A stretch of 20,000 nt of DNA from an uncultured virus (IMG/VR IMGVR_UViG_3300009151_000055). Taxonomy: Duplodnaviria; Heunggongvirae; Uroviricota; Caudoviricetes. Within the stretch, counting starts at the first letter, position 1, and every line of letters starts with the position of its first letter. This document shows, in pieces, positions 4,140-20,000 of the stretch. The position numbers and the translations under genes are program-made. The stretch covers positions 58,123 through 78,122 of the IMG/VR virus record IMGVR_UViG_3300009151_000055. One strand, 5' to 3'. Below the pieces are notes generated by a model. It saw only the letters and a program-made list of their open reading frames with translations. It did not search any database and was not told the DNA's origin.

Positions 4140-6728
4140 CTATTTCTTACTCTTTGATGCTCTGTTCTTTGCATTTGTTCTAGCAATCTCTAAATCATTC
4201 TTTTGATTTTCTCTTGCCACTTGAAGCTTCTCTCTTTCTAAAGCCATCTTATCGTTTGATTGTTTATTCTTTAATTGAATGTCTTGCATTTTCAACTGAT
4301 AATCTTTTGCAGCCTTTTCCTGCTCGTGAGAAAGCTTACTCATTTCTAATACGTCTGGAACAGCGTTCTGGTCAACATCTTCTGCTGCAACATTACCATA
4401 TCCTGTTGCTGAAATAATTGCAATCTTCTCTTTAGAAAGTCTATCAAGTTGTTTTTGATAGTCATCATGAGCTATTTGCTCTTCATGTTGTTGTTGTTGT
4501 TGTGCCAATTGAGCTTGAGCTTGTTCTTGTTGAGCTTGTTGCTGCTGTTGTTGCATTTGTTGTTGTTGGTCTTGCATTTGCTCTTGTCTATCTTTCAATG
4601 TCTTAAACACCTTCTTCATTTGACGTACAGAATCTGTAGAATACAATTCTATAATGTCGTACAATGATCCACCATTCTGTATAACAGCTTGAGACAATTG
4701 TCTAATCTCTTCAAACATCTTCTTATCTTCAGGTCTATTTGTAGCAAACACTTTCAAATCTCTAAATCTCAAATCTGTACCATTCACTTCTACAAATGCT
4801 GATTCTCCTTTAGATGTAATGTATGAAATTGTTGATTGAGGCTTTTTGCTTTCTACATAGAGAGAAGCATCAATAACAGCTTGATAGAGTTGTCCTAATA
4901 CATATTCATGAGCTACAAAAAGAGGTTCTGTTTGAGAATAACTTTGTGTAAGAGCAGCATTTGTTCCTGTAGCAGATTCTGATGCAGAAATACTTCCCAT
5001 TCTCTGTTTAGACATACCTATCAATTCCCAACACTCATTCTTCATTTGTTGTGCAAGAGTGTAACGAGATTGTATTTCTTGTGTTCTTGTTAAATCAATG
5101 TCTCTGAACTGGTTGAAAGAAGATGGTGCTTTTAGATTTTCTGGAGAGTCATCAATAAATACCACTCCTCGATTTCTTGCTTCCAACTCCCACATATCAA
5201 GAGCATCTTGTGCATCTCCGTCTTTTGGAACAGGAATGTGTCTAATTGATGTTAAATAAACCTTTCCTATTTCTTTCTCAAGAAGTTTGAACAGTTGATT
5301 CATACAAACATTGTATATCACCTGAAAAGGTTTCATTAAGTCTACTAAAGACTTCGCTTCTGTGTTCTTCACTTCATGTGTAAGTCCTATAATAGGACAG
5401 TATGGAAGAAGCTTGTAAGGTTTGATGTGATAGATGTCTGGTCCTATCTTCACTCCTTCATACCATTGATTCACCCATCCCCATTCTAAAGACTGTTGTG
5501 TAGGAATGGTGTTACTTTTGTAACTCTCATCAACTAATATTGATTGTTCATTTCCCATTTCATCTAAGAATATAAGCTTCCCTATTTTCTTTTTTGAAAT
5601 CCAATAAGCTCTTACAACAACATATTTGTATCCAAATGAGGAAACATTTGATGTGAGTCCTAAAAAGTCTTTTAGTCCATCATTGTTCTCTTTCATTTCT
5701 GATTCAATAATCATTCTTGTACGAAGCACAAGAGGATCATAGGTGTCGTATTGTACAGAGTCTGTTCCAGGAGTGGCATTAGGGTTTCCCAAATTAGACT
5801 CTCTCACATTTATAAGTCCGTAGTCTTGTAAAGAACTTCTTAAATGATCTATCTCTTCTTTAGTGATGAATGGGAATGTTTCTATAATTTCAGACAATTC
5901 CATCACCATCACTGTTCCAGCAGCATACGCTCCTTGTGCTCTACCTGTTACATCTGAAATATACTTCCTATCAGGCGTAGTGAGAAACCATGTATTCTTA
6001 GGATTGCACACTTCTATATTATATCCTGTTTTAGAATTATCTTCATAGATGTGATAGAATTCTCTAGCAGTGATCATCATGTCTCTAAATGCATCCTCAC
6101 TCTTTTCTTTGAGATTGAATTCAGCTTTTGTAGCTGTAAGTATGTGATTTGCCCATTTCTCTGCAACAGATGTGTAAGAATCTAAATCTTCTTTCACCTG
6201 CTCCATTGTCATTTGATTCAACTGCTCCTCGTCTATTTCTTCTCCTCTCATTGCTGCTTTCTGCAGAATGTCTTGTTTCACTTGATTCATTACGTAGTCC
6301 TGAAGAAGCTGTGTTTTGTATTCCAACTCTTCTGCCTTGCTATCATCATCAAATGCTTTTATAGAATATGTGTTAGGTCTTTTTGAAATCTCTCCCACAA
6401 GCTCATTAACAGGTGTTGTAATAATTGAATAATGTTTAACATATGCAGGAAGTTCCAAATCACTTTGTAACATTTCTGTAAATGACTTTACATCTTGTTC
6501 TTGATAAAAATCTTCAGGACGAAGAATCCCTTTAATAAGATCATAGTTTTTAACAAATGTATCTCTATTCTTTACATATTCAGAATATGCTTTGTTTGCA
6601 AAATAGTCCATTGTGTTCTTCACCCAACTCTCATCTTGCTTCTCTTTGTCTGTTTTAAATTGGTCAGGGAATATATTAAGATAGGCATATCTAATCGTAG
6701 CATCTTTTGTATATCTAATTATAGGCAT
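4140..6728 (-). CDS. Portal protein
   Basis: 862 aa, shares one base with the TerL stop codon (TAATG coupling); long C-terminal coiled coil with a Q-rich tract, like the barrel of podophage portals. Confidence 0.85.
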   Translation of the reverse strand: MPIIRYTKDATIRYAYLNIFPDQFKTDKEKQDESWVKNTMDYFANKAYSEYVKNRDTFVKNYDLIKGILRPEDFYQEQDVKSFTEMLQSDLELPAYVKHYSIITTPVNELVGEISKRPNTYSIKAFDDDSKAEELEYKTQLLQDYVMNQVKQDILQKAAMRGEEIDEEQLNQMTMEQVKEDLDSYTSVAEKWANHILTATKAEFNLKEKSEDAFRDMMITAREFYHIYEDNSKTGYNIEVCNPKNTWFLTTPDRKYISDVTGRAQGAYAAGTVMVMELSEIIETFPFITKEEIDHLRSSLQDYGLINVRESNLGNPNATPGTDSVQYDTYDPLVLRTRMIIESEMKENNDGLKDFLGLTSNVSSFGYKYVVVRAYWISKKKIGKLIFLDEMGNEQSILVDESYKSNTIPTQQSLEWGWVNQWYEGVKIGPDIYHIKPYKLLPYCPIIGLTHEVKNTEAKSLVDLMKPFQVIYNVCMNQLFKLLEKEIGKVYLTSIRHIPVPKDGDAQDALDMWELEARNRGVVFIDDSPENLKAPSSFNQFRDIDLTRTQEIQSRYTLAQQMKNECWELIGMSKQRMGSISASESATGTNAALTQSYSQTEPLFVAHEYVLGQLYQAVIDASLYVESKKPQSTISYITSKGESAFVEVNGTDLRFRDLKVFATNRPEDKKMFEEIRQLSQAVIQNGGSLYDIIELYSTDSVRQMKKVFKTLKDRQEQMQDQQQQMQQQQQQAQQEQAQAQLAQQQQQHEEQIAHDDYQKQLDRLSKEKIAIISATGYGNVAAEDVDQNAVPDVLEMSKLSHEQEKAAKDYQLKMQDIQLKNKQSNDKMALEREKLQVARENQKNDLEIARTNAKNRASKSKK

Positions 6729-8755
6729 TATGTAAACAGTTTTTGTTTTTGTTTATTGTAAAAAAGAGAACTTGATTCAGAAAATAATTTATTGTTTCTT
6801 TTTCCTGAATACAAAGATTTCACTCTATCATCTCCACTTCCTCCAATTCTTCCAAATATAGGATCCATTTTGAGTGCTTGTGCTATTGCTAATTCCGCAG
6901 CAATGATTCTATCAAAGTTACCATTATCGTTATATTGAATAATCTCTTCTAGAAGAACGGGATCAAGTATTTTATTCACCCCAAACACCTCTCTAATCAC
7001 AGAGCCATTCTCATCAGTTTCTTTAACAATAGATTCTTCCATATATTTCTTCAGACATGCATGTAAATAATCAATAATCTTTTGACTACTTCTATGTATT
7101 CCATATTCTCGCTTCACTGTTGTGTTAGGAACAATCTCCATGAGCCATTGAGGCTGCTTTTCTAGATATTGTGCATCTCCTTTTGACTTCATGTATTCTA
7201 TAAAAGAAATATCATCATTCTCACAAAGGGTGCGAGCATTGTAATATTTAATTAGCATTCTAGCTTGTTCTTCCCATGTTTCTTTCTTATCAGGACGTGC
7301 ACAATAAGAAGCTACAAACATGTCTTGGTATTTTTCATCCATCAAGCTGTGCATTCTCTTATATATGTACACACTACCTAGAGAAGAACTGTATGCTGAT
7401 TGTCCCTGTCTGTAGGGATCCACTCCTGCTACATACAATCCGTATGGAGGATTTTCTATAGGAAATTCATATATAACTACAGGAGCATCTTTTAAATCAG
7501 AATTCTTTAGAGGAAAGTTTGAAATAGGTAGTTTGTCTGTAAACTCGTGTGATATTTTACCCTCATCTTGGAAAAGAATAACAGGAGTGCCTGTTCTCAA
7601 TTGTTGTAACAATCTACTCTTTTGTCTCTTGGCAGATTCAATATCAAATATGTTTGTATCCTCATTTAAAAATATATCATCCACTTCTTGAGGATAGTAC
7701 ATCTTTTCTTTTAGATAGGCAATTCTATCTCCAGCTTTCTTCAGACGTTCAAGATTACTTACAGTGAGAGCATTTGCTTTTTCTTCATTGCTTACAAGCA
7801 TTTTAACTTGGTGTAGTTCTGAAGAAAGAGGAACGTTTAGGAAAGCACCAAGAGAAGAGTCTTCTTTGGCTTCCATTCTATACTTGTTAGAAATAAATAG
7901 CCCATGTATTCTAGACGTGTCTTTTGAATTATTGTACGTAAGGAAGTTAAAATTGTCTACATCAAACATAAGACTCTTGGCATCCATAAATCTTTTCATG
8001 TCACCACCTGTTCCTGTAAGAATTGGACTACATCCCCAACCAAAGGGTGTTGTAAATCCTGGAATAGCAGCTTGAAGTCCTCTAAGAAAGGATCCTTTTC
8101 CTATCTCATCTATAATAAGCTTTCTGGGTTTTGTACCTGCAATAGCTTCCTCATTATTACCTTCATCAAGGTTACGAATAAGAATAGAGGAATAAGGAAT
8201 CCTTTCTCCTGATTTAGTTTTAATTCCTAGCGTCACTTGATTCTTCCAATTATCTTCTATTCTTTGCCACCTCCAAGCTTCAGGAATGAAATTCAATCCC
8301 TTGTCTATCTTATCTGTAATAAGCTTTATATCAGGGCTATTTAAGCCTGCAATTACGTTCTGTGAGTTTTCATCAAACGTTGCTCCCCAAGCTATGTAGC
8401 TTGATTCTAAAACTGATTTTGCCAAACGTCTTATGCCTAAAATAACAAGTCCTTTTCTTTCGTTCTGTGCCCTATCAATTTCATTTGTTATCACCCATTC
8501 ATTATCTCTCAAATAGGGATTGGCATATTTTTGTGAAATTCTACCACGTTCATCTATTATATCCACCTCTGTGTTCCAGAAGTTGAGGTGCCAATATAAA
8601 AATGGGTTTATGTACACACCATCCATCATTGCTCCGTTCAGACACAATTCTTTGTGATGGTTGAAAAACTCTCTATGTTCTTCAGAGGATTTATCTGGAA
8701 TTCTTTTTTGATTGATGTACCAATCTTTATAATCTATATTTTTGAGATTGATCAT
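6728..8755 (-). CDS. terL: Terminase large subunit
   Basis: Walker A-like GIRRLAKS, Walker B LIIDEIG, motif III-like TGTGG, RNase H-like nuclease YVAGVDP and C-terminal NFDRIIA. Confidence 0.92.
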   Translation of the reverse strand: MINLKNIDYKDWYINQKRIPDKSSEEHREFFNHHKELCLNGAMMDGVYINPFLYWHLNFWNTEVDIIDERGRISQKYANPYLRDNEWVITNEIDRAQNERKGLVILGIRRLAKSVLESSYIAWGATFDENSQNVIAGLNSPDIKLITDKIDKGLNFIPEAWRWQRIEDNWKNQVTLGIKTKSGERIPYSSILIRNLDEGNNEEAIAGTKPRKLIIDEIGKGSFLRGLQAAIPGFTTPFGWGCSPILTGTGGDMKRFMDAKSLMFDVDNFNFLTYNNSKDTSRIHGLFISNKYRMEAKEDSSLGAFLNVPLSSELHQVKMLVSNEEKANALTVSNLERLKKAGDRIAYLKEKMYYPQEVDDIFLNEDTNIFDIESAKRQKSRLLQQLRTGTPVILFQDEGKISHEFTDKLPISNFPLKNSDLKDAPVVIYEFPIENPPYGLYVAGVDPYRQGQSAYSSSLGSVYIYKRMHSLMDEKYQDMFVASYCARPDKKETWEEQARMLIKYYNARTLCENDDISFIEYMKSKGDAQYLEKQPQWLMEIVPNTTVKREYGIHRSSQKIIDYLHACLKKYMEESIVKETDENGSVIREVFGVNKILDPVLLEEIIQYNDNGNFDRIIAAELAIAQALKMDPIFGRIGGSGDDRVKSLYSGKRNNKLFSESSSLFYNKQKQKLFT

Positions 8756-10361: not shown

Positions 10362-10701
10362 GATTTATGTTCAAAGAAATGTTTTTATTAAAATCCAAAA
10401 GAATGGCAGAATGTAATTTTATCCTATTTCCTTCCTTATACAAAATCTTCATCTTCTTAAGCTTAGAAATAATATTATTCATCGTAGCCTCTGAACTGTT
10501 ATACTTCTTACAAAACTCCTCCTTATTCACTGTATAGGAAATATTCCCTTTAACAGCAAAAAATGATATCAATTGTATTTCTCTCTCAGACAACTTAATG
10601 TCATTCATAACAGAAATGAATGTATAATACTTTTCTGCTATTGAATAAACATCAGGAAGTGTTTTCCTCAATGTCTGTAATATCGTTTTCCTATTTTCCA
10701 T
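10348..10701 (-). CDS. Winged helix-turn-helix DNA-binding protein
   Basis: LSEREIQL...EEFCKKYNSSEATMNNIISKLKKMKILYKEG has a wHTH pattern; first gene of the minus-strand operon. Confidence 0.55.
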   Translation of the reverse strand: MENRKTILQTLRKTLPDVYSIAEKYYTFISVMNDIKLSEREIQLISFFAVKGNISYTVNKEEFCKKYNSSEATMNNIISKLKKMKILYKEGNRIKLHSAILLDFNKNISLNINLVHE

Positions 10702-10713
10702 ATTTAATTCCTA

Positions 10714-10744
10714 CAAAGATAGAAACATTTTCGTGTAAACTAAA
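10714..10744 (-). promoter_or_regulatory. Bacteroidota-type promoter driving the morphogenesis operon
   Basis: Minus strand TTTA-N19-TATCTTTG (exact TAnnTTTG -7 box) 12 nt upstream of the ATG at 10701. Confidence 0.6.
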
Positions 10745-10971
10745 AACTCCTCTAAACCACATAAGCTATAAAATCCTAAAAATTCTATGGTTTCTATAGA
10801 TCTATTCCCGCCCTCCCCCCTTCAAAGGTAAGGGGAAATATAAATACAAAAAAAAAAATTTTTTTTTCTAGCCCCCCCCCCTCCTTTATGTAGATGGGAG
10901 AGGAGAGTACTTCCAATATCAACCCCTCCTTTGATTGACGGGGTGCAACATACCTCCCTGTGATTTGTTTT

Positions 10972-11334
10972 ATGATTACATTAGAAGGACTTGAAATCGA
11001 ACAGGTACAATACCGTGCTACACTCATTCACCAGGAACTACGAAAGGACGGTAAGCCAAATAGCAAAGCAGGACAAGCATATCACTTGTTCAACCTTGCT
11101 AATGGTACAAAGTTTAACAGTGACAGTCAGGCGTTCTTGGATGCCTACAACGATGGCTCACTGTTCACACTGACATTGAAACCCACCGCTGAAGGACTTG
11201 CAGAAGTCAGCGTGTGGAAGACCAGAAAGCAAATCGAAGCATTGTACTCCAACGAAGAGTACAAGCGGAAGGTGCGTAAGCCAGCGGCTGAGACGGTAAC
11301 AGTACCGTTGAACACATTAGTGGCAGGTTCTTAA
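10972..11334 (+). CDS. Hypothetical protein, first gene of the plus-strand block
   Basis: ORF track 10960..11334; ATG at 10972 is the likely start; visibly more GC-rich than its neighbours. Confidence 0.7.
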   Translation: MITLEGLEIEQVQYRATLIHQELRKDGKPNSKAGQAYHLFNLANGTKFNSDSQAFLDAYNDGSLFTLTLKPTAEGLAEVSVWKTRKQIEALYSNEEYKRKVRKPAAETVTVPLNTLVAGS

Positions 11335-11342
11335 GCCACTGC

Positions 11343-11830
11343 CCCTTTGGGGTATATATTATATTCATCACGAATGTGTGTTGAATAATTAATTATATAT
11401 ATACTCCAAAGGGTTTTATATTGTTCTATAGAAAGAATATATTTAATGCATCAATCTCATTTCCCAAGGATGAGCAATTGTAATATATTATCCTAAAGAC
11501 CATAAATGGAACGAGGAATAATTTAATGTCTTGTACAAGACGTATTACAATTGAATGCAGAGGGGATATATACGTTTTGTTTAACGTTTGAAAAGAAAAG
11601 GCGGCTTTTTTCAACTTATCGTTAAACAAAACATGTATTTATATAGGAGAAAGGGATGTATAGGGTGACCAATAACCCTTAACACATCACATTCTCTTAT
11701 ATACATTATGTACAATTGCCGTACATAATGAATATTTTAATGGCAATAGCACACAAACGGTAGATACGTTGATGGTTAATTGTGTGTACGTATAAGAACA
11801 ACATCGCTTATACATTCTTTTGTAACCTCT
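11343..11830 (+). ncRNA. Putative structured non-coding region (series of long stems)
   Basis: 17-bp stem 11343-59/11397-413, 11-bp 11475-85/11543-53, 13-bp 11574-86/11620-32, 10-bp 11642-51/11692-701 and 10-bp 11704-13/11721-30. Confidence 0.45.
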
Positions 11831-11846
11831 TTAATTTATATATATC

Positions 11847-12104
11847 ATGAGTTTTAACAACGTAGTGTCTGTAAGAGTAAGCAATTTCATAGCAGAAGAT
11901 GGTGCTACAGGAAGTTTTAGTGTATTCTTTATGAACGGGCTAGAGATAGCTCGTGAATTTGTTAACCACTACGAGTTCGAGGTGGTTGACAAAACTGTAA
12001 GAGAAGCTACTCCTGAAGATATGGCTCTCATGAATTCCATTCTTGAAAAGAATGAGAATTTTAGATGGAGGGACTTTATGTCCCACTTTGGAGACCAGTG
12101 GTAA
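11847..12104 (+). CDS. Hypothetical protein
   Basis: 85 aa ORF with AT-rich leader, followed by a long hairpin. Confidence 0.7.
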   Translation: MSFNNVVSVRVSNFIAEDGATGSFSVFFMNGLEIAREFVNHYEFEVVDKTVREATPEDMALMNSILEKNENFRWRDFMSHFGDQW

Positions 12105-12110
12105 ATTATT

Positions 12111-12155
12111 CCTGTTCTCATAGAGATTCGTTTCTCTATGGGAATGGGTTGTTGT
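12111..12155 (+). terminator. 16-bp hairpin (terminator or processing stem)
   Basis: CCTGTTCTCATAGAGA/TCTCTATGGGAATGGG with G-U pairs on the + strand, followed by TTGTTGTT. Confidence 0.5.
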
Positions 12156-12158
12156 TAT

Positions 12159-12345
12159 ATGTTCTTCTGAAGAATGAACATTTTGATGTCTAATACATTT
12201 AGGCTATTGTAGGTGGAAACCTTCTTAGATGGATATTTGCGTTCACAAAAGCGTACGCCCAGAGAGATATACCCTCTCGCAAGTGTAAGATTTCCTAGCA
12301 AATATTCATTGAAATCAGTCTCTGTAGCTTAAAGGAGGAACAGAG
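12159..12345 (+). ncRNA. Putative multi-stem structured RNA
   Basis: AGGT-GGAA-ACCT hairpin; 11-bp TGGATATTTGC/GCAAATATTCA enclosing GAGAG/CTCTC; CTCTGT/ACAGAG. Confidence 0.45.
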
Positions 12346-12379
12346 CAAACTTTTAGTAACCAATTAAATCAATATAGTT

Positions 12380-12748
12380 ATGTCTAAGATTTTTAATGGC
12401 ACACCACATGCCATAAATGTGGTTTCAGGTTCTGTTTTCACTCCAGCAATACGCAAGTATGTTGGAGGTGACGTAGTGCTAAGTATTCCTTCTACAGGAG
12501 TGCTTAGTGCTAAAATATCTACAATAGATTTGCCATCTATTGCTGATATCCCTGTATTTGGCAAGAGTTTCTCAGGAGTAGACTCATTACCAGACGGTTT
12601 TGATGTTTACATTGTTTCTGCTCTATACGCTTCAGCTGCTAAGGCTGCAGGTGTAGATTGCAGCAAATTGTATACAGTGGCTGATCCTGTATACACTCCT
12701 GATGGCAATAGTTTTATAGGATGTAGAGGCATTTGCCCTGCATTCTAA
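12380..12748 (+). CDS. Conserved phage hypothetical protein (N.TPH...YIVS...G..IGC family)
   Basis: NGTPHAINV, YIVSALYA and DPVYTPDGNSFIGCRG match a widespread phage protein family of unknown function. Confidence 0.75.
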   Translation: MSKIFNGTPHAINVVSGSVFTPAIRKYVGGDVVLSIPSTGVLSAKISTIDLPSIADIPVFGKSFSGVDSLPDGFDVYIVSALYASAAKAAGVDCSKLYTVADPVYTPDGNSFIGCRGICPAF

Positions 12749-12785
12749 TCAGCCTGTCCTAAGCATGACATAAAACTGCTTATTC

Positions 12786-13085
12786 TCCTTAGGGCACAGG
12801 TCGACGGGAATTAAAACTACGCCCCAGTTTATACGTTCTGAAATACAAAAACGTATTTGATTTGTAAAGATGAGATATGATAGGGACATTCAGCTCATCA
12901 ACAATACAGGGTTTAGGTCCATTACATCGTAATTTAGCTTTTACCTGTATTAAACTAAATAGGCGGCTCATAGCGTGGTGCTGAGCTGTACAACAACAAG
13001 AATACCGCTTGAAAAGAGGAAACTCACTTGTTGGTGAAGGATAAAAAACGTTAGATGCATTGATATATCATGCTAAAACTAACGT
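12786..13085 (+). ncRNA. Putative large multibranched RNA
   Basis: No credible ORF; nested stems closed by TCCTT/AAGGA, a GAAA tetraloop hairpin and potential pseudoknots (see findings). Confidence 0.5.
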
Positions 13086-13178
13086 ATAAAAAACCTTTAT
13101 AAATCCTATTTTTTATTATTTTTTCATTTTTTTTTTGTGAAAGATCTTCACAACACAAACCATTATGTTATAAAAAAA

Positions 13179-13481
13179 CAACTTCCTCTGCAAGATTTGA
13201 CCGTCTTGTGGAGATGAATAATTAAGAAGTTGCTGCAATTTACATATCCTTAATTGGATGTGTGTATTATCAGGCTAAATGAATCTTGGTCAATAAACAG
13301 ATAATTGTTTATTAGATTTATGATGCCTATTGCAGCCAGTTGAGTAAAAAACTGTAAAATTTACTACTGTTTAAATCTGTTCAGTTACCACAGATTAGTT
13401 GATTGATTGAGATTATCCTCTTGATATTAGCGATATGCAAAGATTGGAATGTTCTATAGAGTTCGATTCTCTCACTTTGCA
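13179..13481 (+). ncRNA. Putative pseudoknot-rich RNA ending in a tRNA-like acceptor/T-arm module
   Basis: Multiple stems, two to three pseudoknots, and a 3' AGAG-TTCGATT-CTCT T-arm inside TGCAAAG/CTTTGCA. Confidence 0.5.
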
Positions 13482-13530
13482 CTTATTTTAATTAAAACCT
13501 TTAGGTGTATAGGTTAACCTTACCATTAGT

Positions 13531-13755
13531 ATGAACACAGATAAGAAATATTTTGTAAAAAATGCTGATGCAGCAGCATCGTTTGGAAACGCGAAGCCTG
13601 CAATAAAGGATATATTTATTTGCTGTTCACAGTGTGATGGAGCACCGCTCTACACACAACACGGCTTCACTGTTGTTACGAGCTTGTCTCGTACACAACT
13701 TAAAAAAATGGGTATTTTGGTGTCAAGTTCTAACGACACCTACACCTTGCAATAA
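13531..13755 (+). CDS. Hypothetical protein
   Basis: 74 aa ORF with ATG start, CxxC and TAATAA stop. Confidence 0.6.
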   Translation: MNTDKKYFVKNADAAASFGNAKPAIKDIFICCSQCDGAPLYTQHGFTVVTSLSRTQLKKMGILVSSSNDTYTLQ

Positions 13756-14052
13756 TATTTATACGCATGGAGAGTGGCGTGCTGATGTGTACAGCCTAAA
13801 CAAACATAAATTAAGGTTGCTCTGTCTCCATTTCCTATAACAAAATCTTAAAGATGAATTGAAAAGACATTCATAATGAGACTAGGTTTGTAATAATAAT
13901 GGAGAAAGTTTGTATACAAAAGCAAACGACATGCGTATATATTATTTTTCAACTGATTTTGAGGTTTCCCTGAACGCACAGAAATGTGTTAGTAGGGGAC
14001 TTCTATTTTCTTTTTTTAAATTATTTTTTATTCATCCTCAAATATATATTTT

Positions 14053-14409
14053 ATGGCAGCTTACGGGTATAGTTCAGCGTTGAAAGCAGCAGGTGCTACG
14101 GTAATAGATTTCAAAGCCTCAGGTGATTATCAAGGCACTTGGGGTGCTGTTGTTGACTATAATGGTCAACGCAGCGTGGTGATAGGAGCTTATGGCTCTT
14201 GTGACCATTGTGATCCATTTCAGGCAAGATTTGGCTACGATGGTGGTAGTCCAGAAGAAATGAAAGCATTTGGAGAATCATATCTCCACAATCCTTATTC
14301 AAAGGAAGATGTGGAGAGGCAAATCGCATTCTTGTCTGAGGACGAGGATGATTGGTTTGATAGAGAAACATTGGAGCTCTATAAATGGGCATTAACATTT
14401 TTCAATTAA
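14053..14409 (+). CDS. Hypothetical phage protein
   Basis: 118 aa; GDYQGTW...YGSCDHCD motif seen in phage hypothetical proteins. Confidence 0.75.
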   Translation: MAAYGYSSALKAAGATVIDFKASGDYQGTWGAVVDYNGQRSVVIGAYGSCDHCDPFQARFGYDGGSPEEMKAFGESYLHNPYSKEDVERQIAFLSEDEDDWFDRETLELYKWALTFFN

Positions 14410-14420
14410 TTCTCTCTTAT

Positions 14421-14485
14421 AGAGAAAATGTTTGCGAAAGGTGCTGAATAACACCACTTATTGCAAATGTTTTCTCTTTTTTATT
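14421..14485 (+). terminator. Long hairpin plus T-run (putative terminator)
   Basis: AGAGAAAATGTTTGCGA...TTGCAAATGTTTTCTCT followed by T-rich sequence. Confidence 0.55.
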
Positions 14486-14516
14486 TTGTATTTTAAACCT
14501 TCACATATTAATTAAA

Positions 14517-14708
14517 ATGAAAAAAGCAGCATTGTTTTTGTTAGCAATCATCACACCGTTCTTGTTGGTGTGGATAGCGTTTGTATGCACAGGATGTGCA
14601 TTTGTTCCCAAAGAAGTGTTCAACGCAGGACAGTTTTGGGGAATGTCCATTATTTATTGGGTGATAGTTTGCCCTATATTGTTAATTGTGATAAATGATA
14701 CAATATGA
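14517..14708 (+). CDS. Small membrane protein (2 predicted TM segments)
   Basis: 63 aa with two hydrophobic stretches. Confidence 0.65.
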   Translation: MKKAALFLLAIITPFLLVWIAFVCTGCAFVPKEVFNAGQFWGMSIIYWVIVCPILLIVINDTI

Positions 14709-14911
14709 AAAATTATTATTTAATATCTGCTATAGTGATGTTGATGGCATCTATAGCGTGGATATTTTTAGGCATTTATTTGCTCACACCATCAAAAGTA
14801 AACCTCGCTATCATTAGCTTAGTGTTCACAGGAGGACTGATGACCTCTTATTCTTTGTATACAAGTTATCAAGACTGTAAAAAGTCTTATGATGACTTAT
14901 TTAAAAAGTAA
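14705..14911 (+). CDS. Small membrane protein (2 predicted TM segments)
   Basis: 68 aa, ATGA overlap, two hydrophobic stretches. Confidence 0.65.
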   Translation: MKNYYLISAIVMLMASIAWIFLGIYLLTPSKVNLAIISLVFTGGLMTSYSLYTSYQDCKKSYDDLFKK

Positions 14912-14927
14912 CCATCAAACCAATAAT

Positions 14928-15065
14928 ATGAAGACAATTACATTGTCAGCCAAGGAGTTCTACAACTTCAAAAAGTTAGCCAATTTCTATTTTGATTTCT
15001 GGATTTTGTCTGGAAATATAATAGTGACAGCTTCTATAGAAGAACTAGAGCTCTTAGGCTATTAA
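14928..15065 (+). CDS. Small hypothetical protein (45 aa, not in ORF track)
   Basis: MKTITLSAKEFYNFKKLANFYFDFWILSGNIIVTASIEELELLGY*, preceded by an A-rich AAACCAATAAT leader. Confidence 0.6.
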   Translation: MKTITLSAKEFYNFKKLANFYFDFWILSGNIIVTASIEELELLGY

Positions 15066-15158
15066 CCTCTCACAATATATGTATCTAGACTTTATATCTA
15101 TATACATATATTTTCCTTTGGTTAGTTCATTTTATATTTAAAAACGTATAATATTTTT

Positions 15159-15362
15159 ATGAAAGAAGTAAAGATGACAATGGAATTTGTAATCGATGTA
15201 GACGATAACATTGTAGACATCGAAGAGTTATGTGATAGAGTGGTAGTTTGTTTTCGTAATGAAGACAAATTAGGAATAGAAACCTTTCTGCCTCAAGACG
15301 ATGGTTTGATGGTAATAGGATATATATCCACTACAATTGACAACATAACTGAATTAGAATGA
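15159..15362 (+). CDS. Hypothetical protein
   Basis: 67 aa acidic ORF coupled to the next gene. Confidence 0.65.
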   Translation: MKEVKMTMEFVIDVDDNIVDIEELCDRVVVCFRNEDKLGIETFLPQDDGLMVIGYISTTIDNITELE

Positions 15363-15739
15363 CAAACAAATTAGTTTACACCATTGTGCCTGAGAGTACA
15401 TATAATGGTGGGTATTTAGCAGGCTATTATAATGATGACGAAGTGGTTAGACCTTCGTATTGTTATTTACATGGTAAGTTGGAAACCTTAATTGGATATG
15501 ATATATTTAGCATGCTTCGTTCTGAATTAGAAGCTGATCAAATAGTTGACAATAGAGTGTCTGATAAATTTGAAGAAGGCATACACTCCTGTATATGTAT
15601 GGGTAAACCATGCACATTCTTTAGATGGAAAACTAATGAACATCATAAGAGTTTTGCAGGACTTGTTGTATTAAATTCAGACACACGTGCGTTGGAATAT
15701 GCACAAGAATGCTACGATAACAAAACAAGTAATATTTAA
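15359..15739 (+). CDS. Hypothetical protein
   Basis: 126 aa ORF with ATGA overlap. Confidence 0.7.
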   Translation: MTNKLVYTIVPESTYNGGYLAGYYNDDEVVRPSYCYLHGKLETLIGYDIFSMLRSELEADQIVDNRVSDKFEEGIHSCICMGKPCTFFRWKTNEHHKSFAGLVVLNSDTRALEYAQECYDNKTSNI

Positions 15740-15749
15740 ACCAAATACA

Positions 15750-16247
15750 ATGGAAGCAGTGTTAATATTTCAAAGCTATGAACTTCCTTCTTGGCAGGAA
15801 ATAGAGCCAGGGATGATGTTTACAAGTCTTGATAAATATTCTGATTACGTTAGAATCAGGACAATTTCTCAAGAACAGAGTCTTCGTCTTGATAAGGAAT
15901 TGTTCATTCGAGAGAATGGACATCCAGTAAAGCCATATATATGTGCAATGGATGGCACAATCCTTGCTCGACCAGAAGAAATAGGTTGGTGGGATTGTGG
16001 AGAAGATTGCGACTCCTATACAGAAATAGGAGAAAAGGAATTCAATCTGATTCTTGAGAACGAAGGACTCATTGATGTAGAAACAACATACGATGACGAA
16101 GAAGGTTATCAGTTGTTGTACATGGATGGCAAAGTGATAATTTCTGTTCTTCAGGAGTACGAAGAATCTGAAGAAGAATACAGTGATGAAATATCTAATC
16201 ATTTTAAAACTAACGACGATGATAATGACGAGTCAGAAGAGTGGTAA
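15750..16247 (+). CDS. Hypothetical acidic protein
   Basis: ORF track 15687..16247; ATG 15750 (MEAVLIF) after AAACCAAATACA is the likelier start. Confidence 0.7.
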   Translation: MEAVLIFQSYELPSWQEIEPGMMFTSLDKYSDYVRIRTISQEQSLRLDKELFIRENGHPVKPYICAMDGTILARPEEIGWWDCGEDCDSYTEIGEKEFNLILENEGLIDVETTYDDEEGYQLLYMDGKVIISVLQEYEESEEEYSDEISNHFKTNDDDNDESEEW

Positions 16248-16386
16248 TACACTTACACGTCCTCCAGTGATCAATTATGAACCTCTTACATTCCAAGAAT
16301 GGTGCGAGGAGTTTAATGTATCTCTATTGTTTAACAAAATACCAACACACATAGAACATGAGTACAGTATATTGGAAAATGCGTAA
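16225..16386 (+). CDS. Small hypothetical protein
   Basis: ORF track 16183..16386, probable start at ATG 16225; bridges two genes. Confidence 0.45.
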   Translation: MTSQKSGNTLTRPPVINYEPLTFQEWCEEFNVSLLFNKIPTHIEHEYSILENA

Positions 16387-16612
16387 TGGATCTTTGATTG
16401 ATGTTGACGAAATGGATATCAATCATCTGCGTAATACGCTAAAAATGATAATAAGGGCTTCACAAGCCCAAGTTCGCAATTCGCAAATTGCAAACAAACC
16501 TGCTCCTAAACTTGAGCTTAAAGGTGAAATGTCTCAATTGTTTAATGATGATTTTCCTGGAGATGATGATGAGTATAATCCTTACGAAGACTATAAAGCG
16601 TTTCTTTTATAA
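16358..16612 (+). CDS. Conserved phage hypothetical protein
   Basis: WKMRNGSLIDVDEMDINHLRNTLKMI matches the common phage motif W...G..I....M...HL.N. Confidence 0.7.
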   Translation: MSTVYWKMRNGSLIDVDEMDINHLRNTLKMIIRASQAQVRNSQIANKPAPKLELKGEMSQLFNDDFPGDDDEYNPYEDYKAFLL

Positions 16613-16627
16613 CCAAAAAATAGATAT

Positions 16628-16894
16628 ATGATACTTACGTACGGATTCCATCCTGTCACTAAGGATGAGACAAAAGAGAAAATTGTTAAATATCTAGAGG
16701 CTATTGATATCTCTTCTAAAATCATTGAAGGAGGAATCAATGGCTCTTTAGAACTAGAAGTGGAAGATGGCATTCATCCTGATAACATCCTAGAACTAGG
16801 GTCAATACTTGGGATGCATGAGACCATTTTCTCTTGGGAAGATGCTGAAAATGAAGACTTCCCATTCGAAGGAGATGACGATGCTGATGTATAA
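16628..16894 (+). CDS. Hypothetical acidic protein
   Basis: 88 aa ORF ending at a terminator. Confidence 0.65.
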   Translation: MILTYGFHPVTKDETKEKIVKYLEAIDISSKIIEGGINGSLELEVEDGIHPDNILELGSILGMHETIFSWEDAENEDFPFEGDDDADV

Positions 16895-16896
16895 AT

Positions 16897-16931
16897 AAAA
16901 AAAGGGAGAATAAATTAATATTCTCCCTTTT
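16897..16931. terminator. Bidirectional intrinsic terminator
   Basis: AAAAGGGAGAATA-AATTAA-TATTCTCCCTTTT, flanked by A and T runs, between convergent genes. Confidence 0.75.
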
Positions 16932-16946
16932 CATTAAGAGATTGAA

Positions 16947-17120
16947 TTAGGCTGTTTTCACCACTTTTGAAGCAACACTCCAAATAGCACCAATTAATGT
17001 GCTAATTGCACCAATTGCTTCTACAGAAGTTGCTTCATCAATTACACCTTTGGTGATGAGAAATCCACCAACGAATGTCAATACGTGTCTAACAAGTCCT
17101 AAAATTTGATCTTTGTTCAT
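16947..17120 (-). CDS. Putative holin (Pam3-gp28-like small 2-TM protein), not in ORF track
   Basis: MNKDQILGLVRHVLTFVGGFLITKGVIDEATSVEAIGAISTLIGAIWSVASKVVKTA*; RH.LT..GG.L...G and terminal WS motifs; has its own promoter and terminator. Confidence 0.7.
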   Translation of the reverse strand: MNKDQILGLVRHVLTFVGGFLITKGVIDEATSVEAIGAISTLIGAIWSVASKVVKTA

Positions 17121-17137
17121 AGTGAAAATATTTTAAA

Positions 17138-17168
17138 CAAATATACAAAAATATTTTATGTACACAAA
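17138..17168 (-). promoter_or_regulatory. Bacteroidota sigma70 promoter for the holin-like gene
   Basis: Minus strand TTTG-N19-TATATTTG, a perfect consensus. Confidence 0.7.
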
Positions 17169-17448
17169 TGGTGTAGAAGAAATAAAAATAGAATATGAGT
17201 TATTTCCTGAAAAATATGCAACAATTTACGTAGATGTAAATTGGATGCACCAAAGAGAAAAGATGTACACATCTAATGGAGACATTGGATGGGATGGAAC
17301 ATCATCTTGGGAAATTAGTCATATATCGTGGGGAGATATTCCTCACATGTTCAGAGATGAAAAAAAAGTGGAAGAAGCTCTGAAGAAGAAAATATCACAC
17401 ATTTCTTCTGATGGAATAGTCTTTAATCCCTTGTTAAAGAAACACTAA
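17158..17448 (+). CDS. Hypothetical protein
   Basis: 96 aa ORF. Confidence 0.65.
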   Translation: MYTNGVEEIKIEYELFPEKYATIYVDVNWMHQREKMYTSNGDIGWDGTSSWEISHISWGDIPHMFRDEKKVEEALKKKISHISSDGIVFNPLLKKH

Positions 17449-17461
17449 TTTTGTATATTTG
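17431..17461 (+). promoter_or_regulatory. Bacteroidota sigma70 promoter
   Basis: TTG-N20-TATATTTG; shares the 13-mer TTTTGTATATTTG with the holin promoter. Confidence 0.6.
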
Positions 17462-17475
17462 CATAAACCAAATAT

Positions 17476-17850
17476 ATGAATAAGTTTATATTAGTGAGAA
17501 TAGCCATCATAACAGCATTGATAACACAAGTGAGTCATGCTGCATTCGTGTTTAAGAGCATTTCTAAAACAAACGGATGGGTGGATGAGATTATTGCATA
17601 TGTATTCGCTGTTTCTCTAGAACTGTCAATATACATATTCACAATAGAACAAAAGAGAAGCGTAGCAACATTCTTTGCAATAATCTCATTTCTCATTAAT
17701 CTATTATACTATTGGAATTTCAATCAATTTGATTTTGCGTTTTATGCCAGCTTGTTGATTTCGTTCACAATTCCTACAACCATTTGGAATTACAGCGATC
17801 TTATAAACAATGAGCCAAGAAAACGTCCATACATTAGAAAAACAGAATAA
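17476..17850 (+). CDS. Multi-pass membrane protein (about 4 TM segments)
   Basis: 124 aa with four hydrophobic segments and a basic C-terminal tail. Confidence 0.7.
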   Translation: MNKFILVRIAIITALITQVSHAAFVFKSISKTNGWVDEIIAYVFAVSLELSIYIFTIEQKRSVATFFAIISFLINLLYYWNFNQFDFAFYASLLISFTIPTTIWNYSDLINNEPRKRPYIRKTE

Positions 17851-17972
17851 AAATATTGAGAGAGTGCATGAACACGAGGGCTATGTTAATTCTAGATGAA
17901 TGCATAGGTAGTAAGTAGACACTTTGGGAGGACTAGCTATCCTCCCCTCTCACTTTTTTAAAAAACAATAAA

Positions 17973-18110
17973 ATGAGAAAAACACCAAGTCTTATTAAGC
18001 AAATCATGGAGAAATCTAAAAAAGATCCATGGTATGTAAAACTAAAAAGAAGAATAAGATTAAAATTATTCATTTTTAAATGTTCTATAAAGCAATGGTG
18101 GTGGAAATAA
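17973..18110 (+). CDS. Small basic protein (45 aa, not in ORF track)
   Basis: MRKTPSLIKQIMEKSKKDPWYVKLKRRIRLKLFIFKCSIKQWWWK* with an A-rich leader. Confidence 0.45.
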   Translation: MRKTPSLIKQIMEKSKKDPWYVKLKRRIRLKLFIFKCSIKQWWWK

Positions 18111-18113
18111 ATT

Positions 18114-18258
18114 GATGGAGTGGCGGAAGGTGTTAGGGGTGTCCTCTAACGTGGTAGACGCTATTATCTGAGAGGGTGCTTGTGAGTAGTATGCAAAACT
18201 ACATAGATACAAGTGTTATAGAAGCACCACATTGTGGGTTCAAATCCCACCTCCATCA
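18114..18258 (+). tRNA. Aberrant, enlarged tRNA-like element (Leu-type D arm, expanded anticodon domain)
   Basis: Acceptor GATGGAG/CTCCATC+A, D arm TGGCGGAA...TGGTAGACGC, T arm GTGGG-TTCAAAT-CCCAC; 145 nt. Confidence 0.7.
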
Positions 18259-18348
18259 CATAGTTATTTGGGTGCTTATCCAGTAACTTTTGATAATGTG
18301 TCCCAGTCTGTTGTGGATCGCAACCACTCAGAACATCTCTTATCAAGT

Positions 18349-18447
18349 AATGTAGTGGCGGAATTGGTATACGCAGCTCTATAAACGGGTGGAAGTAATA
18401 ACATTGAAAACAGCTTCTAAATGCAGGTTCGAGTCCTGCCTACATTG
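18349..18447 (+). tRNA. tRNA-Leu-like element with a non-canonical anticodon arm (possibly TAA)
   Basis: Acceptor AATGTAG/CTACATT, D arm TGGCGGAATTGGTATACGC, long variable arm GAAGT/GCTTC, T arm GCAGG-TTCGAGT-CCTGC. Confidence 0.7.
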
Positions 18448-18547
18448 CAGACTTTCATCTAAGGCTACACTGAGAACTGATGAAACTTGTTGGTAGCTGT
18501 AGACTACACGAACAAGGGTGATATAAGAATCCCACTTACCTATCAAT

Positions 18548-18574
18548 GAGGAGTACCAAAGCTCCTCTCTTTTT
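18548..18574 (+). terminator. Intrinsic terminator closing the tRNA-like cluster
   Basis: GAGGAG-TACCAAAG-CTCCTC-TCTTTTT. Confidence 0.65.
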
Positions 18575-18593
18575 AAACTTTTAAAACAGAAAT

Positions 18594-18797
18594 ATGAAAA
18601 AAATGAAAATGTTAGTAGTTTTGTTATTAATTAGTGCATCGTTGTTTGCTGTGCCAATGACAATTAATGTGTGTAAGGTTTGTGGAAACACAGATGGTTA
18701 TCCACAATATGCTGCTCATAATCCACTTGTACATGGGTATAAAGCCTTTGTAAGGTGGTGGAACAGCACAGATTTTATGTTTGACTTTAATATGTAA
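18594..18797 (+). CDS. Small secreted protein with signal peptide
   Basis: MKKMKMLVVLLLISASLFA signal-peptide-like N-terminus followed by CKVC. Confidence 0.6.
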   Translation: MKKMKMLVVLLLISASLFAVPMTINVCKVCGNTDGYPQYAAHNPLVHGYKAFVRWWNSTDFMFDFNM

Positions 18798-18802
18798 AAA
18801 AT

Positions 18803-18828
18803 AAAGGGAGTGTAAAAGCTCCCTTTTT
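18803..18828 (+). terminator. Intrinsic terminator
   Basis: AAAGGGAG-TGTAAAAG-CTCCCTTTTT. Confidence 0.7.
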
Positions 18829-18841
18829 AAATTTTAAAATT

Positions 18842-19060
18842 ATGAATAGACCAATTAAGGAAACTTACACTGTATCGTTAACGTTTAATGACATTGATTC
18901 AGATAATCCATTAGAAGCTGTGAAAAAAATAATTGGATGGATTAAAGACGATGGGGTAGATTATATGATTTTTGATGTTATTGGTGAAACCAGTAATAAT
19001 AAATTCACGGTTGATATGTCAGAAGAAGAAGAAGATGCAGTATTACCAAACAATGAATAA
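18842..19060 (+). CDS. Hypothetical protein
   Basis: 72 aa ORF. Confidence 0.65.
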   Translation: MNRPIKETYTVSLTFNDIDSDNPLEAVKKIIGWIKDDGVDYMIFDVIGETSNNKFTVDMSEEEEDAVLPNNE

Positions 19061-19352
19061 ATTTAAAATTATGAGCATACCAACAGCAAAAGAATTTGTA
19101 CTAAATCAAAATGATGGATACTTAGCAGGAGATTACACTCCTAATGAAGTATATCGTATCATGATTGGATTTGCTAAATTACACGTAAAAGCAGCATTGA
19201 AATCAGCAAGTGAAAAAGCTTATGTAGAATATGTTGACTTAGAGACTAATGAAATATTTGATTATACAGATGTAATTACAGATGATAATGTAGGAGCTGA
19301 TGTAAATGTAAAATCAATATTAAAAGCTTACCCATTAAACAATATAAAATGA
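19053..19352 (+). CDS. Hypothetical protein
   Basis: ORF track 18972..19352, likely start 19053 or 19071; MIGFAKLHVKAALKSASEKA...SILKAYPL resembles Bacteroidota-phage hypotheticals. Confidence 0.65.
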   Translation: MNKFKIMSIPTAKEFVLNQNDGYLAGDYTPNEVYRIMIGFAKLHVKAALKSASEKAYVEYVDLETNEIFDYTDVITDDNVGADVNVKSILKAYPLNNIK

Positions 19353-19891
19353 AAAATATACATTTATTGCCCACAGATAAACCAAGTAGGTTAAGCTACT
19401 TTCAAGGTAAATTACTTTTTGATAAAGAAGAATTTTATAAAACATTTATAAGTCAAAACATCTACATCATTTCTTCAGAAGAAATTAAAAAAGGAGATTA
19501 TGTACTTAGTGGAACTAATACAATGATTAAATGCATGTATCCTAATAATGTAGTTGATAGAGATGTTAAAAAAATCATCCTAACAACAGACCAAGACTTA
19601 ATCAATGATGGTGTACAAGCCATTGATGATGAGTTCTTAGAATGGTTCATTAAAAACCCAACTTGTGAGGAAATAGAAATTAAATTAGTAGAATTTGAAG
19701 TTGATATGGAATTAGGTGAATCGTGTATAGAATATGGTAGTTATTATAAAATAATATTTCCAAGAGAACAACCTTATCAAGAGTTATTTGACTACTTAGC
19801 AAATGAATTAGGTGTTAATGCACTTTTAACTCAAATGCAAGAAATTGAAACAATAGTTATGTCAAAACAAAAACAAATAAGTTATGAATAA
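19349..19891 (+). CDS. Hypothetical protein (YI.S.EEIK.GD...KKII.TTD family)
   Basis: 180 aa; motifs recurrent in Bacteroidota phage accessory genes. Confidence 0.7.
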   Translation: MKNIHLLPTDKPSRLSYFQGKLLFDKEEFYKTFISQNIYIISSEEIKKGDYVLSGTNTMIKCMYPNNVVDRDVKKIILTTDQDLINDGVQAIDDEFLEWFIKNPTCEEIEIKLVEFEVDMELGESCIEYGSYYKIIFPREQPYQELFDYLANELGVNALLTQMQEIETIVMSKQKQISYE

Positions 19892-20000
19892 AGCAATGCA
19901 AGAATTAATTGATTGGGCAAAATCCTTACAATACAATCAGCAACAATGTATAGATTGGATAGTAATTAAAGATAAAGCAGAACAATTACTTGAAAAAGAA
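19884..20000 (+). CDS. Hypothetical protein, truncated by the window end
   Basis: MNKAMQELIDWAKSLQYNQQQCIDWIVIKDKAEQLLEKE... is open to the window edge. Confidence 0.55.
   Translation, partial: MNKAMQELIDWAKSLQYNQQQCIDWIVIKDKAEQLLEKE

Follow-up and report, generated by a model that had tools for sequence, protein, structure and literature searches.

A compact structured RNA of a previously uncatalogued family in a large lake-water phage, with a tRNA-like addition confined to one lineage

The stretch of DNA analysed here (the window, 20,000 nucleotides) is the final 20 kb of a 78,122-base virus record, IMGVR_UViG_3300009151_000055, which is estimated to be 67% complete. A 107,671-base record with an estimated completeness of 93% is identical to it wherever both were compared. 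Head genes lie on the - strand of the window, namely those of the large terminase (6728-8755), the portal (4140-6728) and the major head protein (1215-2768), and the + strand carries small open reading frames (ORFs) from about position 10,960 onward. The terminase shares 39.6% identity with that of Leptolyngbya phage Lbo-JY46, 32.7% with that of Cellulophaga phage phi4:1 and about 26% with those of crAss-like phages. Between the ORFs 12380-12748 and 13531-13755 there is a gap free of ORFs of at least 60 amino acids, and within it lies the subject of this study, the region 13179-13481, which a first-pass annotation had described as a chain of pseudoknots ending in a minimal tRNA-like module. 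As judged by sequence comparison, the + strand here carries a genuine gene for a structured non-coding RNA, with a conserved core at 13180-13431.

All motifs listed in the first-pass annotation lie where it had placed them: CAACTTC/GAAGTTG surrounding CTCTGCAAGA/TCTTGTGGAG, the loop GACCG (13199-203) and the bulge TGGTC (13287-91), GCTGCAAT/ATTGCAGC at 13232-39/13329-36, CAGTT/AACTG with AGTAAA (13343-48) and TTTACT (13360-65), AATCTGT/ACAGATT, and TGCAAAG/CTTTGCA (13436-42/13475-81) around AGAG-TTCGATT-CTCT. In the fold that we propose for the + strand, domain 1 (13180-13231) comprises the helix P1 (13180-85/13226-31) and the hairpin P1b (13186-96/13203-13) with the loop UUGACC (13197-202), of which GACC (13199-13202) provides the 5' strand of the long-range pairing PK1 with the bulge GGUC (13288-91). 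Domain 2 (13232-13336) is a three-way junction made up of P2 (13232-39/13329-36), P2a (13241-49/13256-64), P2b-0 (13272-75/13325-28), P2b-i (13279-86/13314-21), the bulge UGGUC (13287-91) and P2b-ii (13292-99/13306-13) with the loop GAUAAU (13300-05). Domain 3 (13337-13365) is an H-type pseudoknot in which S1 pairs CAGUU (13337-41) with AACUG (13350-54) and S2 pairs AGUAAA (13343-48) with UUUACU (13360-65). In the segment 13366-13396 the hairpin P4 (13374-80/13390-96) presents CAGU (13382-85) in its loop for pairing with ACUG (13366-69), a contact that we term PK3. Domain 5 (13398-13431) is the hairpin P5 (13398-412/13419-31) with the loop UUAUCC (13413-18). The core RNA is thus modelled with five helical domains, one H-type pseudoknot and at least two covarying long-range pairings that link domains. 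The folding energy of the region is -80.9 kcal/mol on the + strand (z = -4.72) and -60 kcal/mol on the - strand (z = -2.41).

A terminase search yielded 386 relatives, of which the best-scoring 80 loci were used; 2 of these are identical copies, and the other 78 carry a terminase that is 75-87% identical to that of the window. The RNA is absent from related loci: blastn, nhmmer and R1, a covariance model built from the window and its close variant L006 alone, returned only near-identical copies from 78-80 loci. On whole related records, R1 matched 3 of 50 (the record of L006, the identical record and one weak, chance-like match) and 0 of 30 further ones. The locus L040 (16.6 bits), AT-rich and with mismatched closing pairs, was judged to be a chance match. 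Searches of GenBank phages by blastn, with the window and with the homologue L103, gave only near-identical copies, searches with neighbouring proteins led to the same three contigs only, and exact or near-exact word scans returned only known contigs or one new near-identical variant. A 21-mer scan of a genome collection had its sole match inside a membrane-protein coding sequence of a Saprospiraceae assembly, which we take as chance and not as evidence for a host.

Diverged homologues were found by a two-anchor DNA scan for both strands of P2 with 75-100 free bases between them. Its eight loci are three of the window's own lineage, three diverged homologues and two chance matches in G+C-rich coding DNA. 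In the following, the window, L006 and L094 are referred to as lineage A and the diverged L103, L105 and L107 as lineage B. R1 scores L103 with 124, L105 with 138 and L107 with 112 bits, and the terminases of these phages are 29-32% identical to that of the window. L103 lies in a complete record of 126,979 bases, and L107 is interrupted by a contig end. Each homologue record holds one copy of the RNA within a non-coding gap of 0.8-1.4 kb, and in both lineages the RNA shares its strand with the flanking genes, which are small ORFs around the homologues. In a complete 127-kb phage with a homologue (L114 of G051), the gap without ORFs of at least 60 amino acids extends over 1.44 kb (1524-2967), of which about 500 nt precede and about 670 nt follow the RNA. 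Between the more distant pair of lineage-B phages, similarity spans P1 to domain 5, and a translated comparison of window positions 10701-20000 with 23.5 kb around the homologues gave a match only at the RNA. The conserved unit is therefore the core 13180-13431, which has no conserved protein neighbour.

It is the comparison with these homologues, not the folding energy, that raises the region above chance. When the three diverged homologues are included in a model-fitted alignment, pairing holds in 97.4% of 539 cells, and both sides have changed in 29 of 104 pairs; shuffled controls averaged 18.6, none of 500 reached 29, and sliding the partners by 1-3 columns left 0-4. A structure-blind MAFFT alignment still had 91.1% of its cells paired and 20 of 93 pairs double-changed, a count that was likewise reached by none of 500 shuffles and fell to 0-5 with slid partners. 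By both counts, the helices of core domains 1-5 have been preserved by compensatory change in independent lineages. In the model-fitted alignment, 7 of 11 pairs are double-changed in P1b (100% of cells paired) and 2 of 6 in P1 (94.4% paired); the corresponding counts are 3 of 8 for P2b-i, 4 of 8 for P2b-ii and 6 of 13 for P5. S1 has three invariant pairs out of five; it is unchanged in two homologues and reads CAG/CUG in L103, where two pairs fail. P4 is shorter by one whole base pair in the homologues, and the P2a hairpin occurs in all six sequences, with 9 bp and a hexaloop in the window, whereas the homologues have 6-7 bp and a tetraloop, GAAA or GCAA. In the window, G-U accounts for ten of the 93 pairs, and these swap with G-C and A-U across the sequences, as expected of an RNA read from the + strand and of neither duplex DNA nor the - strand.

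The long-range pairings, none of which was part of the aligning model, behave in the same way. For the loop-bulge pairing proposed in the first-pass annotation (PK1), GACC/GGUC in the window has become GGUC/GACC in all three homologues, with 2 of 4 pairs double-changed and all cells paired in the model-fitted alignment. The helix S2 of the H-type pseudoknot, which had also been proposed, covaries as well, with double changes in 2 of its 6 pairs. PK3 had been missed: here ACUG/CAGU is replaced by GGUG/CACC in the homologues, 2 of 4 pairs are double-changed, and all cells are paired on both alignments. A nested alternative between CAGU and ACUG (13366-69), which minimum-energy folding prefers, was rejected, as the homologues have GGUG at this position with CAGU unchanged. 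The suggested pairing between TGATTGA and the loop of the AAUCUGU hairpin is not conserved and had to be given up; in the homologues that loop (CACC) pairs with the upstream GGUG instead. Finally, GAUAAU (13300-05) and UUAUCC (13413-18) are two loops that show no change in any sequence extending as far as their positions; they complement each other along 5-7 bases, with a duplex energy of -4.5 kcal/mol in the window and -7.8 kcal/mol in the homologues. Because neither loop varies, we can only infer a kissing contact between them, which could form within one molecule or between molecules.

Apart from identical copies, lineage A comprises two further variants of the window's RNA, L006 and L094, and the pattern of change in them is that of a constrained element in a more variable surrounding. 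The RNA of L006 differs in 7 of 305 aligned columns, and the surrounding blocks are 82-89% identical; in L094, divergence amounts to 3.0% for the RNA, 24.1% for the promoter stretch, 29.8% for ORF 13531-13755 and 9.8% for ORF 14053-14409. All three stem substitutions within lineage A stay paired (G-U to A-U, G-U to G-C and A-U to G-U), and its two deletions, in a (UG)n run and an A run, shorten single strands; taken alone, the three sequences of this lineage contain no double change. Homology to L006 ends after 13483, where about 270 nt including ORF 13531-13755 are missing, and this end marks the 3' edge of the conserved unit in lineage A.

Upstream of the core we read a promoter-like region (13137-13174, + strand) from the sequence, with TTCACA at 13147-52, a 16-nt spacer and TGtTATAAA at 13166-74. 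Its second, -10-like element is conserved in L006 and L094. An inverted repeat GTGAA-N5-TTCAC (13137-41/13147-51) overlaps the -35-like hexamer and reads GTGGA-N5-TCCAC in both L006 and L094, so that its symmetry survives a double change; the repeat (13137-13151) may be an operator or a small hairpin. A promoter scan of the window did not list TTCACA-N16-TGtTATAAA, as the scan rule demands a T at position 6.

The novelty that had been claimed for the RNA held against the 4227 models of Rfam 15. At curated thresholds, the window gave two matches, both to tRNA (18114-18258 and 18349-18447) and none at the RNA. At E <= 10, positions 12950-13700 gave three matches with E values from 2.2 to 7, the homologues gave a single match with an E value of 0.46, and seven related loci gave tRNA-like genes only. 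A catalogue of about 8,500 motifs from IMG/VR gives lengths of 29-151 nt in the portion considered here (PMC10690425); a 20-mer of the RNA is absent from six of its supplementary files, files 1, 2 and 4, which may list parts of the RNA, lying outside that search. In the literature, no description of the RNA was found. By these comparisons, the RNA family matches no Rfam family, tRNA or tmRNA and is previously uncatalogued.

Several known identities were considered and rejected. The likeness to tmRNA noted in the first-pass annotation proved superficial: ARAGORN called no tmRNA with or without its intron option, and no tmRNA model matched at E <= 10. Both acceptor strands lie within 13436-13481 and not at the two ends of the RNA, and the third pair is C-G or A-U instead of G3-U70. 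The only Ala-started tag-like frame recognised by eye (from 13232) crosses 13259-60, where L094 has a 2-nt deletion that breaks it. With regard to YrlA or Y RNA, a Ro60 gene (TROVE, PF05731) was found in neither of two phage records (G000 and the 93%-complete G002), with control genomes matching; a host gene is possible. A riboswitch or leader was rejected for lack of a conserved association with a downstream gene, and a group I intron because no split ORF lies on either side. A small protein is contradicted by the absence of ORFs of at least 60 amino acids in 13179-13481, by indels of 1-2 nt and by the compensatory pattern.

Four nucleotides past the core begins a tRNA-like minihelix of 46 nt (13436-13481, + strand). 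It consists of an acceptor stem (13436-42/13475-81), a 15-nt connector with GG at 13446-47, the T stem AGAG/CUCU (13458-61/13469-72) and the T loop UUCGAUU (13462-68), which is of the UUCRANY type and is closed by G13461-C13469. The acceptor stacks on the T stem, giving a stack of 12 layers whose junction holds two central mismatches or a 2-nt bulge. In the tRNA register as read from the sequence, G13437 would be +1, U13436 would be -1 and A13481 the discriminator, followed by CUU. Twelve stacked layers, a U at -1 and an A at 73 are typical. D and anticodon arms are missing, as the first-pass annotation had stated, and no cloverleaf can be drawn: just 15 nt separate acceptor and T stem, the tRNA model RF00005 gave no match at E <= 10 and ARAGORN called no tRNA.

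The minihelix is present in all three lineage-A variants, with no change in L094 and with two connector changes in L006 that leave the GG intact. L103 and L105, the two homologues whose sequence extends this far, lack it and have unrelated hairpins there. Since it occurs in the window's lineage alone, the minihelix is an addition that does not belong to the family. The tRNA-like module can thus not be the defining end of the RNA, as had been assumed. The initial proposal of a novel non-coding RNA of about 300 nt stands with respect to a novel structured RNA, given the lack of an Rfam match and the covariation, and fails with respect to the tRNA-like end as a family trait; the core measures about 250 nt. 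A descriptor for an acceptor and T arm of this kind matched seven times in 1,403,938 bases of the phage group, compared with a mean of 1.0 over 20 shuffles. The matches are the window, L006, L010 and L019 (two registers each) and one that is likely chance. In L010 (4231-4300) and L019 (2876-2945), on the - strand of the loci, a small ORF and a G+C-rich hairpin are followed by a 49-nt acceptor/T-arm minihelix (UUCUAUU...AAUAGAA, T loop UUCGAGU) with a short inner hairpin whose loop differs between both phages. These loci represent a second, unrelated case of a tRNA top-half behind another unit.

Overall, the comparative evidence indicates that this is a real, new structured RNA family, rare in databases, whose tRNA-like end is a lineage-specific addition. 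We consider it probable that 13180-13431 (+ strand) encodes a stand-alone, compact non-coding RNA of an uncatalogued family in a large lake-water phage, and that the minihelix, in lineage A only, is processed by host tRNA enzymes. Transcription could be driven by the RNA's own promoter-like site TTCACA-N16-TGtTATAAA and start near 13180, the product being, as our best inference, a stand-alone early RNA, whose core would act in trans. Host tRNA-processing enzymes would recognise the minihelix and thereby make or protect the 3' end. RNase P might cut between U13436 and G13437, with 3' trimming and CCA addition to follow; such a cut would leave the 3' end of the core just past domain 5, where conservation stops in the other lineage. 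Bacterial RNase P processes non-tRNA RNAs with such modules, among them pre-tmRNA, phage M3 RNA and phage C4 RNA, according to the sections of PMC11143913 drawn upon here. For YrlA of M. smegmatis, which has a 7-bp acceptor stem, the portion of PMC4201824 used here describes cutting by RNase P and the attachment of CCA. Of sampled words from 12300-14500, 5-8% are present in three lake-water metatranscriptome runs, which is no evidence either way.

A number of observations weigh against this interpretation. The neighbouring coding stretches 12451-12753 and 14101-14403 fold better than the RNA (z = -6.87 and -5.90), and among 264 windows of 303 nt the region lies only 1.98 SD below the G+C trend, its folding being unremarkable locally; thermodynamics therefore does not single the region out. 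As a discrete stable transcript, the RNA is a prediction from its sequence. Scans for promoters and terminators in the homologues gave nothing clear, and the sequence past the minihelix in L006 is not U-rich. The minihelix itself deviates from a canonical tRNA end by its mismatches at the acceptor/T junction and by CUU in place of CCA. P2 served as the search pattern, which biases the homologues that could surface and makes its own invariance uninformative. The model-fitted alignment leans to nested helices, and MAFFT places domain 1 of the homologues one column off, so that P1b is 72.7% and PK1 75% paired. The model-fitted placement of domain 1 is nevertheless supported, because the minimum-energy fold of each homologue shows the hairpin loop UUGGUC. 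With six distinct sequences from about two lineages, each double change corresponds to about one evolutionary event. Finally, the RNA is missing from 47 of 47 and 30 of 30 other records of phages with terminases 75-86% identical and is therefore dispensable.

Alternatively, the minihelix might stay attached to the RNA as a working part, mimicking the top half of a tRNA in order to recruit or soak up a host factor. We regard this reading as possible but unlikely, and the same applies to the candidate factors, namely an aminoacyl-tRNA synthetase, EF-Tu, the CCA-adding enzyme or a defence toxin directed at the acceptor ends of tRNAs. It would fit the observation that the 78 kb of the phage contain no ordinary tRNA gene, yet three T-arm-bearing elements on the same strand (the minihelix and two others), and that tRNA-like genes of related phages have an anticodon arm that does not decode, such as the 7-bp stem with a 4-nt loop in L016. 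The retention of the connector GG in L006 despite two neighbouring changes points in the same direction. However, the diverged homologues keep the core without the minihelix, which implies that the core works without it, and the minihelix has no G3-U70 pair and no other synthetase identity set that we recognised by eye.

A more far-reaching interpretation, which we regard as doubtful, is that the core represents a new globular class of phage RNA with a fold that equals a ribozyme or a self-assembling RNA particle in intricacy. With three to four long-range pairings in about 250 nt, its invariant loops could join copies to each other, and the tRNA top-half of one lineage would hijack the host machinery for tRNA processing or binding.

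It is improbable, in our view, that the minihelix is a functionless, decaying remnant of a tRNA gene or attachment site that came to lie next to the core by accident. Its confinement to one lineage, the two mismatches at the stem junction and the missing match to the Rfam tRNA model at E <= 10 would agree with decay, as would the indel of about 270 nt directly after the minihelix in L006, a feature also seen at recombination hot spots. Against decay, a perfect 7-nt complement is found 15 nt before the T arm, and the minihelix shows no change in L094 and only 2 changes along its 46 nt in L006, with flanks that differ by 10-30%. In L010 and L019, an ORF is followed by a comparable minihelix whose sequence is different. 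Moreover, the 23-nt T-arm/acceptor word occurs in 0 of 185,579 species genomes; the minihelix hence copies no known host tRNA end and an origin as attachment site is unsupported, though the host perhaps lies outside this collection.

Even less likely is a cis-acting leader, i.e. a riboswitch or attenuator for downstream genes. The RNA does lie on the coding strand upstream of small ORFs, and its complex fold is comparable in size to large riboswitches. Yet the downstream gene differs in every case: ORF 13531-13755 is absent from L006, none is shared with the homologues, and the next ORF in G051 begins about 670 nt past the RNA. Nor did Rfam return a riboswitch match. A DNA-level element (replication origin, packaging site or attachment site) is hardly credible despite the AT-rich non-coding surroundings with their many hairpins, since the one-strand swaps of G-U with G-C and A-U agree with RNA and not with duplex DNA, the - strand folds far less well, and no repeated binding-site motif was noticed by eye, no repeat-finder search having been made.

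The RNA that we propose shares single traits with several known systems. Like tmRNA (RF00023 and its permuted forms), it combines pseudoknots with an acceptor/T-arm module that includes a D-loop-like GG stretch and lacks a D stem. Unlike tmRNA, its acceptor stem is a local 3' hairpin, there is neither G3-U70 nor a conserved tag frame, and the homologues lack the module. In mammals, MALAT1-mascRNA carries a tRNA-like 3' processing module. As in MALAT1-mascRNA, phage M3 RNA, C4 RNA of P1 and P7 and pre-tmRNA, a tRNA-shaped element after a longer RNA could let RNase P make the 3' end of the latter, but none of these has a sequence relation to the window's RNA, for which cleavage is conjectural. 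The large, ornate RNAs GOLLD and ROOL of phages and bacteria are also stand-alone phage RNAs of complex fold with tRNA-type genes nearby, and, as in these, complementary invariant loops could join copies; with its roughly 250 nt, the window's RNA is far smaller, finds no match among the Rfam models of these families, and would only possibly form multimers. The packaging RNA of phi29, likewise a phage RNA, has loops that form pairs with one another. We liken the window's RNA to it by description only, and the window's phage belongs to a different group and has a large terminase. RNAs of this size that are complex and rich in pseudoknots have in the past proved to be ribozymes, riboswitches or components of large RNA-protein machines, and new complex RNAs with covariation support are, to our knowledge, uncommon. 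YrlA-type Y RNAs, according to the portion of PMC4201824 used here, are modular non-coding RNAs with a tRNA-like domain that are found in phages; the window's RNA differs from them in lacking a D arm, in bearing its tRNA-like part at the 3' end instead of nested, and in that no GNCGAA motif was noticed.

The family is common to two phage groups with a terminase identity of just about 30%, is accompanied by no conserved protein gene and is absent from closer relatives. This distribution suggests that the RNA is an accessory one, passed from phage to phage and acting on the host. If the proposed processing is true, the tRNA-like tail would be a bacterial-virus counterpart of the tRNA-like 3'-end processing of eukaryotic long non-coding RNAs, and it belongs with the other non-decoding tRNA look-alikes of this phage group. 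The weight of the finding is limited by the very small size of the known family.

The two tRNA-like genes of the window (18114-18258 and 18349-18447, + strand) score above the Rfam tRNA threshold, and ARAGORN calls them only when introns are allowed, one with a CUA anticodon, by models that we find unconvincing. Related tRNA-like genes lie on the - strand of the loci L016 (6071-6143), L032 (3333-3419 and 3911-4013) and L043 (5931-6088). Those of the window and of these three loci score 32-44 bits and have a normal acceptor, T arm and D arm, the latter in the relatives presumably resembling the tRNA-Leu type. The anticodon region is expanded or unable to decode.

Further observations concern the flanks of the RNA. 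The segment missing from L006 spans 13484-13760, comprising ORF 13531-13755 with its flanks, and the break falls exactly at the end of the tRNA-like module, which places a gene-swap boundary at the 3' end of the RNA. This ORF encodes 74 amino acids without a PHROG match, and its protein is 70.6% identical in L094. The ten best-folding of the 264 windows all lie on the + strand between 11.2 and 16.7 kb, and the well-folding coding stretches 12451-12753 and 14101-14403 contain hairpins of up to 17 bp inside two ORFs with PHROG family matches, 12380-12748 and 14053-14409. The + strand gene region thus seems, from these computed folds, to be unusually structured as RNA. Window positions 12858-12957 are missing from L094. 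Just upstream of the RNA gene, a non-coding block (12958-13099) differs by only 2.8% from L094 and ends in a long hairpin (about 13046-13085) bordered by A runs, which on the - strand reads as a hairpin followed by a U run and would be terminator-like for leftward transcription.

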